Shown here: in pieces, positions 34,445 through 36,016 of the stretch | How the letters are laid out: the number at the start of each line of letters is the position of its first letter | Position numbering within the stretch: the stretch's first letter is position 1 | Assembly (NCBI GenBank): GCA_951406725.2 | Contig: OX597816.1 | Location: 162,440,001 to 162,504,000, forward strand | Length of the DNA stretch: 64,000 nucleotides | Direction of reading: 5' to 3' | From: Octopus vulgaris | Lineage: Eukaryota | Notes under the pieces: model-generated | What the model was told of the DNA's origin: nothing | Seen by the model: the letters and a program-made list of their open reading frames with translations, nothing else | Databases searched by the model: none | Position numbers and translations under genes: made by a program

Positions 34445-34482
34445 GGTGCAGGAGTAGCTGTAGGGTAAGTAGCTTGCTTACC
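34445..34482 (+). mobile_element. SINE A head, interrupted by insertion
   Basis: GGTGCAGGAGTAGCTGTAGGGTAAGTAGCTTGCTTACC. Confidence 0.85.
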
Positions 34483-35025
34483 TCTTGTATTGACAGTCCA
34501 GAGTTGCCTCCGCAAGTGGCTACTCTGGTACTGGGAGGAAAGGAATGTTTCCACTTAACAGACTCCTTTTCAAGGGAGGATTACAGATTTCTCCGTGGGG
34601 GCCCCGACTTGCTGGTGCAGGATTGCTTGAAGACCGTAAGAGAGTTAAGCGGGGATTAGTATGAGAGGTTTATTGCCTCAAGTATGTGTTAAATTTGTAA
34701 TGGACATTTTAGTCCAAATAAATTGTATGTATTGAAAAATTGTAAGAGGTTTGATACCTCAATGTATATGTTTTAATATTGAAGAATTTTAAGAGGGTTA
34801 ATACTTCAATATATGTTTAAATATTGAAAAATGTAAGAGGTTGAATACCTCAATATATGTTTATGAAAGAACAATGTTATAGAGAAGCAGTGGGTCGGCG
34901 GACGCTTTTTCTCTTCTCCAATCCTTATCATTCTCGTATCATCATCATTCATTTCATTAATGTTTTGTCCAGCCCGCAAAGCTACCTAATCTTTGTACTG
35001 TCTTTATCACAAATACAATAAAATA
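34483..35025 (+). mobile_element. 5'-truncated non-LTR-like insertion (ORF end, 3' UTR with about 45-bp tandem repeats, AATAAAATA) with 16-bp TSD
   Basis: AAGTAGCTTGCTTACC occurs at 34467-34482 and 35026-35041. Open frame ends at TAG 34659. Confidence 0.75.
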
Positions 35026-35041
35026 AAGTAGCTTGCTTACC

Positions 35042-35323
35042 TGGATTCCGGTTACCCAGAGTGCATTTGTTTTGTTGTTTGTGTGCGAGTCGGACGTTTT
35101 TTTTTTCTTTTGCTGCTTTGAGGGCAGACATAATGTACTCAGACTTTAGCGGGTCTGAGTTGTCTTCAACAGAGGAGGAGCTGGTAAGGGCGGTCATAAA
35201 GATGGACGGAGTGTTGGAAAAGGCAAGGAGTTTTGCTGAGACCACGGAGATGAAGCGAAGGGTGTTGGACTTGGCTGGTCTGAAGGAATATGAGAAGATG
35301 GTACAGAAGGTGGGAGGCGACGT
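35042..35323 (+). mobile_element. 5' end of a second element: 5' UTR + ORF1-like start (MYSDFSGSELSSTEEELVRAVIKMDG...), truncated into the SINE A tail
   Basis: GC-richer open frame from ATG at about 35133. Joins GGTCACAGTTTAATGAGTGAAACAAGTAAAAGA (family A tail, about 35324-35358). Confidence 0.55.
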
Positions 35324-36016
35324 GCGGTCACAGTTTAATGAGTGAAACAAGTAAAAGATGAAACATAAAATATAAAAGAATGCACAGATGGATAAACAAG
35401 AAAAACCCAAAATCCCAAACTACAATGTTTGACACTGAGCCAGGGTTTTGAAGATGAGGGATCAATAAAAATGGACGGATTTTGACTGGATTGCTCTTCT
35501 CGTTGCATAGCGGTATTTGCTTCGGTTCGTTGCATTCCTAGAGCAAGAGTACTAATATAAATATTTATACAAAAAATGCATGGTCTGGCAGAAATGCATG
35601 GTCTGGCAGGAGATAGACAAAGTGGGTTTATAGCAATATATAATAACATACTATATGCTAACTGAATTAAAGAGTATACTTTTAGATATCTGTACGTGTA
35701 TGCGTATGTGTATTTAGAAGTGTGTACCTTTCTATATATGCATGTGTATGTAAGCATAAATAAACATATATGTGCAAACACACGCACATACACATAAGAT
35801 TTACACACACTGACATGCGTACACACACGAAAAGACACACGCACAAACACACACACACAAACACATATGTTGGAAGATAACATATTTATCGGGACACAAT
35901 TGTATTTCTGAAAACGGGTTCTATTTATGAAGATACAAACACAAACCGTCGCCAGCCGATTCGGTTTGTGTCTGGCTCTTGCTTTTTCTCCATTTTTCTC
36001 CATGTGTGTATGCGTC

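Follow-up and report, generated by a model that had tools for sequence, protein, structure and literature searches.

Two ORF1-only retroelements in one SINE head of Octopus vulgaris, and the elements that share their target

Layout of the composite SINE locus

The locus is located in a 64,000-nucleotide stretch of Octopus vulgaris DNA (the window), and its parts follow each other in the order SINE head, 16-bp target, 3' end of one element (piece A), second target, 5' end of another element (piece B), deletion, and SINE tail (Table 1). The initial annotation had read this arrangement as two tandem insertions at one position of the SINE head. The SINE head, the two 16-mer targets, the 543-bp insert, the end of one ORF and the start of a second are all found where it had placed them, and a target copy indeed precedes both the A 3' end and the B 5' end. 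The 16-mer has 6 matches in the window at two or fewer mismatches, with 0 expected from shuffles. The 4 matches other than those at the locus belong to intact SINE heads, each continuous with the SINE body.

Table 1 Features of the composite locus (positions in the window)
Feature	Position	Strand	Basis
tRNA-like SINE head, 5' part (box A region), stops at the insertion point	34445..34466	+	matches intact SINE heads in the window
Target copy 1, AAGTAGCTTGCTTACC	34467..34482	+	sequence match
ORF1-only family A element, 3' portion (5'-truncated), 543 bp, ends in AATAAAATA	34483..35025	+	
Target copy 2, AAGTAGCTTGCTTACC	35026..35041	+	sequence match
ORF1-only family B element, 5' portion with 5' UTR and ORF1 start (ATG 35133), cut by deletion	35042..35328	+	
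Host SINE 3' tail, reached via deletion	35326..35358	+	comparison with an intact window copy of the SINE tail

Piece A contains the last 58 codons of a C-terminal domain, with the stop codon at 34657-34659, and it ends in a 3' tail of the common type described below, without poly(A). Three imperfect repeats of ~45 bp are present in the family A 3' UTR (34736-34867 in the window), and their number varies among copies. Read by eye, B breaks off at ~35328 and the SINE tail takes over at ~35326, the two overlapping by 3 bp at the deletion junction; ~1.1 kb of B and most of the SINE body are gone, and ~287 bp of B are left. It had been noted initially that the SINE does not resume after either target copy. 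This is correct for the window, where no SINE body follows piece B owing to the deletion into the SINE tail, but not for complete B copies elsewhere, after which the SINE resumes from the target. The data favor neither order of insertion of A and B at this locus.

The SINE head is weakly tRNA-like. ARAGORN found a tRNA in 0 of 14 fetched heads at the default score and in 7 of 14 at 80%, and it gave 14 calls at 70%. An Rfam scan of one SINE copy returned low-complexity matches only and no tRNA match. When the junctions are mapped by eye onto this weak tRNA model, the 5' junction falls in the part equivalent to the anticodon arm, as proposed for the insertion position at the outset, but the element 3' end joins the part equivalent to the D-loop. 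Genome-wide, at least 61,929 exact matches to empty target heads were found, together with at least 490 exact junctions between an element end and the SINE body (control, 0). These two counts, both lower bounds obtained with slightly different patterns, place target occupancy near or below 1%.

Two ORF1-only families and their target preference

Both pieces are dispersed repeats of their own genome: for piece A, 1,390 candidates yielded 54 matches, and for piece B, 40 of 187 candidates were scored. The window pieces are 89-93% identical to their nearest copies. They belong to two different, related families rather than to the one consensus that the initial annotation had anticipated. Complete copies of family B are 1.3-1.45 kb in length. 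Family A units are 1.9-2.3 kb and fall into many subfamilies, which are mutually 55-60% alike in DNA. Each complete unit of either family contains one ORF, a 3' UTR, and a common tail of ~45 nt that ends in AAATA, with no poly(A). None of 6 complete A and B units showed ORF2 similarity, consistent with the ORF1-only, non-autonomous form proposed earlier, and neither did any of 12 diverse or 30 young further family A loci. An exception-like case is the locus L165, where a B-type 5' part is joined directly to ORF2 sequence. This copy (L165:479-2445, minus orientation, G000 C1) combines a B-type 5' end with the 3' third of ORF2 (85% to the young autonomous family described below), and the 10-kb stretch around it holds at least five related units. 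It may be a deletion derivative of an autonomous element with a B-type ORF1, or a recombinant, and it hints that a B-type ORF1 may be part of autonomous or recombined elements as well.

The A and B ORFs are homologous to ORF1 of the autonomous element (25-48% identity in tblastn, plus alignment). An intact family A ORF encodes 415 aa; the predictions for it include two RRMs and a CCHC knuckle, together with a disordered linker and a C-terminal domain of ~85 residues. The RRM and the zinc knuckle had both been suspected initially. The two-RRM model gave a best Z of 9.9 (rmsd 2.6, 82 aligned). The ORF end in piece A aligns to the C-terminal domain, which is missing from the autonomous ORF1. The model of this domain is confident (pLDDT 81), and it has no Foldseek match at E 0.001 (best Z 4.5); we assign no fold to it and do not claim novelty. 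Pfam searches with the window peptide and with A and B fragments gave weak zf-CCHC matches and nothing else. In the Atlas, the family A ORF was placed with CCHC-type and ZCCHC3-like clusters at 0.87-0.92, which is a lead only. The dN/dS ratio is 0.11-0.27 in 7 of 10 subfamily pairs, with synonymous sites saturated in the other 3. These ratios show selection on ORF1. Part of the signal could be older than the loss of ORF2, if the subfamilies came separately from unseen autonomous parents.

Two features of the 5' UTRs were observed. In the family A copy nearest to piece A, the 5' UTR contains a degenerate (CCCTAA)n telomere-like tract of ~390 bp (L157:3650-4200 = L002:350-740, G000 C11), and a similar tract flanks L019. 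By eye, the 5' UTRs of L152, L154, L157 and L091 contain a GGTAAG/GGTAGG donor-like motif ~60-110 nt in, and a pyrimidine tract with AG just upstream of the ATG. This arrangement suggests a 5' UTR intron that is kept in transposed copies of several families.

In family B, 27 of 29 non-self copies start at the target. Of these, 17 have a clear SINE head upstream, 5 directly follow the 3' end of a different element, and 5 are at truncated, degraded or displaced targets. A search for the 3'-tail pattern without regard to the flank gave 170 matches (control, 0). Among the 100 listed of these 3' ends, 86 have three or fewer mismatches to the 15-mer target by eye count, 2 are borderline with four mismatches, and 12 are off target. 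The inspected target-matching 3' flanks are SINE body or another element, with no recognizable tRNA gene. For the A copies nearest to piece A, the SINE target is found at 10 of 26 distinct non-self loci that keep the 3' end, a count that leaves out 2 loci without the 3' end, 1 duplicate and the window itself. Nine of the 16 A loci off the SINE target begin with AAGYA only, which suggests a short core motif. The off-target A copies L004, L014 and L030 have duplications of 10-13 bp that start with RWGTAG-like sequences, and these may outline the minimal motif of the endonuclease.

A full-length element at the same target

The end of an ORF2 is found upstream of some junctions between an element and the SINE body. 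It belongs to a 5.45-kb autonomous element inserted at the same target, which is the kind of APE-RT partner that the initial annotation had envisaged. ORF1 of this element contains zf-CCHC, and its separate ORF2 contains Exo_endo_phos, RVT_1 and zf-RVT, that is, an N-terminal APE endonuclease, an RT and a C-terminal zinc finger, with the catalytic motifs present. The best solved relative of ORF2 is human L1 ORF2p (E 1e-66 over residues 6-870), compared with 1e-19 for R2, and this comparison is coarse because the list compared holds no full-length solved ORF2 of other APE clades. Judged by its sequence, the autonomous partner is an L1/Tx1-type APE element with an RT closer to L1 than to the RLE type. 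A homologue search with ORF2 gave 15 proteins among 7,999 scored candidates (the best at 62% and six at 38-43%), and none of the 15 carries an informative name or is a named Tx1 reference. The element is covered by contigs of 4 runs, although such coverage cannot show transcription.

A search with the 5' part of the autonomous element gave 40 copies at 99% (212 candidates). All 30 fetched 5' ends are at the target; the upstream neighbor is a SINE head for 27 of them and an ORF1-only element for 3. The 3' ends of the full copies are also at the target in 22 of 22 cases, 20 before the SINE body and 2 before another element. The 22 full copies have a mean identity of 98.9%. Five of them retain an open ORF2 and two have both ORFs open, one of the two with a short compensated shift in ORF1. 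The 3' tail is common to the autonomous element and the ORF1-only families. Older autonomous families, with ORF2 57-85% identical, are present at the same target. The 5' junction often differs from the downstream target at positions 10-13, which suggests that the element carries a few target-like bases at its own 5' end and that the true duplication is ~9-16 bp. The SINE bodies behind 18 autonomous copies (L139, L150, in which the body is deleted, and L141 and L147, with elements downstream, are omitted from this set) have a mean identity of 92.9% and belong to two subfamilies. Because the SINE bodies are this much more diverged than the elements in front of them, each autonomous insertion hit a different, older SINE.

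A share of more than 20% of flanks at the target has been used as a criterion of specificity (PMC4494074). The autonomous element (30/30 and 22/22), family B and the nearest A copies are all above this value. The earlier proposal of a target-specific retrotransposon on the SINE head thus holds for the autonomous element, for B, and for ~86 of the 100 listed 3' ends, and the expectation that most copies of both pieces are flanked by the target holds for B but not for the nearest A copies.

Stacked insertions, their alternatives and their meaning

Elements are frequently inserted next to other elements. At 12 of 74 counted exact 5' ends of one class, the upstream sequence is another element and not a head; the corresponding figures are 5 of 29 for B and 3 of 30 for the autonomous element. 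Tandem placement is ~20-fold commoner than site occupancy predicts, and young A' units have another element downstream at 14 of 16 independent loci. We mapped five arrays, which mix families and include autonomous elements. Four of them are bounded by a SINE head and a SINE body and contain 8, 9, 7 and 4 units; the fifth contains more than 10 units, and its ends were not reached. The fifth array (G000:C7:13457500-13494000; L164, L208-L210) includes two older autonomous elements and array-specific target variants. A local target variant recurs there in front of different families, a repeat of the kind that sequential duplication predicts. Units within an array are 0.1-1.1% apart (one 3'-ward C10 unit is at 2.2-2.4%), compared with mostly 0.7-3% between arrays, which indicates that local re-insertion or DNA-level duplication also contributes. 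As a guess at why filled sites are favored, Pol III factors that reach from box A to box B, across the target between them, might protect an intact head.

At 8 loci (L172, L173, L177, L178, L180, L182, L183 and L190), A' immediately precedes a member of one other young family, A3, whose first bases resemble the SINE sequence that is normally 3' of the target. Neighboring units at these loci show no congruence (Mantel r 0.08, p 0.29). Over all 11 loci the correlation is higher (r 0.65, p 0.004), an effect of three different families in the downstream position. Co-mobilized dimers are thus unsupported, as the neighbors have no common history across the 8 loci.

We consider it highly probable that the window holds two ORF1-only elements of different families at one SINE-head site, each likely inserted separately by the endonuclease and RT of a full-length L1/Tx1-type relative. 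Since the pieces in the window far exceed the young autonomous family in age, any mobilization in trans would have required an older relative, and older relatives are present at the same target. By analogy with established LINE biology, the ORF2 endonuclease would nick the bottom strand between GTGGT and AAGWAGC, and ORF2p would recognize the common tail in trans and prime reverse transcription at the nick (TPRT). A second nick would occur ~9-16 nt downstream, and the cDNA end would anneal via the target-like 5' end of the element RNA. Each insertion would duplicate the target, leaving a site that can be reused on either side. ORF1p (RRM-RRM-CCHC) may have been retained through a requirement of each RNA for it in cis. 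Most of B and the SINE body would have been lost afterwards through a deletion.

A and B could instead have arrived in one event, through a read-through A-target-B RNA or a template jump, with reverse transcription starting from the B 3' end and stopping 543 bp into A. This predicts that the truncated unit is the upstream one, as is the case in the window and at L162, and the frequent downstream neighbors of young A' units (14 of 16 independent loci) would also fit. However, the upstream partners of the B subfamily differ among the window, L052 and L058, three copies have none, a 5'-truncated unit is found inside the array at L163, and the divergences of neighbors do not covary at the 8 A'-A3 loci. 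We therefore regard a single event as unlikely. Even less credible, and rejected here, is the alternative that the initial annotation had set against its own reading, in which B is a constitutive part of a SINE-headed chimera. The RNA of B would then include the head, or the whole SINE, and carry it along. Such a chimera would account for the clear SINE head directly upstream of 17 of 29 B copies, and the few target-like bases at element 5' ends agree with it, but complete copies resume the SINE from the second target copy, 5 of the 29 have another element in place of the head, and in the young autonomous family the SINEs (92.9%) are more diverged than the elements (98.9%).

Two further alternatives concern the origin of the target and the growth of the arrays. 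The endonuclease may have evolved on a true tRNA gene, with the SINE head as a look-alike secondary sink. The weak tRNA likeness of the head is in line with this, as are the Tx1-clade families that target U2, U5 and 5S (PMC4494074). We find this origin doubtful, since the inspected 3' flanks are SINE body or another element and include no recognizable tRNA gene. It is conceivable, although not the likelier course, that DNA-level duplication or gene conversion is the main source of array growth, in place of re-targeting of filled sites, or that assembly artefacts account for part of the arrays. The closer similarity of units within arrays than between them agrees with duplication, whereas the mixture of families only 55-60% alike, the inclusion of autonomous elements, the non-identity of array units, and the location of most tandem junctions counted genome-wide at separate loci argue against it, and the A-B pair of the window would be left unexplained. 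The separate insertion of A and B by a full-length relative remains our preferred reading.

Mammalian L1 ORF1p has a coiled coil-RRM-CTD architecture. The HAL1 (half-L1) elements of mammals are ORF1-only (PMC5753468), and A and B are similar to them in being non-autonomous, in encoding ORF1p only, and in their derivation from the L1 group. In contrast to HAL1, A and B are target-specific, their ORF1p is predicted to be RRM-RRM-CCHC with an extra domain in family A, and many deeply diverged subfamilies coexist. HAL1 proper, of mammalian L1 descent, was rejected as an identity, as the relatives of their ORF1 are local CCHC-type ORF1s. Among Tx1-clade elements, Xenopus Tx1 inserts into Tx1D, crocodilian Tx1-Mar into Mariner-N4_AMi, Tx1-9_AMi into Harbinger, and Keno into U2 (PMC4494074). 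The octopus system shares with them an APE endonuclease, two ORFs, and a fixed site in a multicopy sequence, which in several cases is another TE. It differs in that the site is a tRNA-like SINE head with at least 61,929 exact empty copies, whereas the TE targets listed in PMC4494074 are DNA transposons and LTR elements. By analogy, it would work like a Tx1 element with half-L1-like riders. Occasional tandem insertion at one position of U2 genes is described for Utopia (PMC4640811), which is likewise a target-specific element in tandem at one spot of a small-RNA-type target. Utopia, however, has a restriction-like endonuclease, and the arrays described here mix autonomous and ORF1-only families at ~20-fold above the occupancy expectation.

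In an octopus repeat annotation, recently active L1-Tx1 comprises 13 families with 421 insertions and 2,288,644 bp (PMC13282606). Division gives a mean of 5.4 kb each, equal to the length of the autonomous element here. The main text of that paper does not contain "target", "nest" or "specific", and it does not describe the site preference, the ORF1-only partners or the arrays. In the literature searched, with Repbase Reports and most subscription papers outside its scope, we found no SINE-head-specific family with such stacking. TE-targeting Tx1 elements, half-L1s and tandem insertion are already known singly.

The HeT-A, TART and TAHRE elements of Drosophila form telomeric head-to-tail mixed arrays of gag-only and RT-encoding non-LTR elements. 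The arrays in the octopus genome differ in being interstitial, nested in SINEs, and separated by a target duplication between units. A tentative reading, which we hold to be possible rather than probable, is that a guild of retrotransposons lives on the SINE, with self-reinforcing re-targeting of filled sites and with RT-less lineages that carry a selected, elaborated ORF1p over deep time. An insertion would part box A of the SINE from box B, disabling the promoter and exposing the duplicated target. Filled sites would be re-targeted ~20-fold over empty ones, giving rise to HeT-A/TART-like mixed arrays, and the RT-less lineages would keep their own ORF1p, with its extra domain.

The genome thus contains a three-level system of parasites, consisting of a SINE, an autonomous LINE, and ORF1-only riders. 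With tens of thousands of empty sites and hundreds of filled ones, target choice, trans-mobilization and the need for ORF1p in cis become measurable from sequence. The arrays are a pitfall for repeat annotation. For work on endonuclease specificity, the APE-type site-specific element, which is young and apparently intact, offers a candidate model. For a specialist, the surprising parts are the stacking bias and the long-lived ORF1-only lineages; the strong excess re-use of filled sites shows that the target sequence alone does not fix the landing place of a site-specific element.
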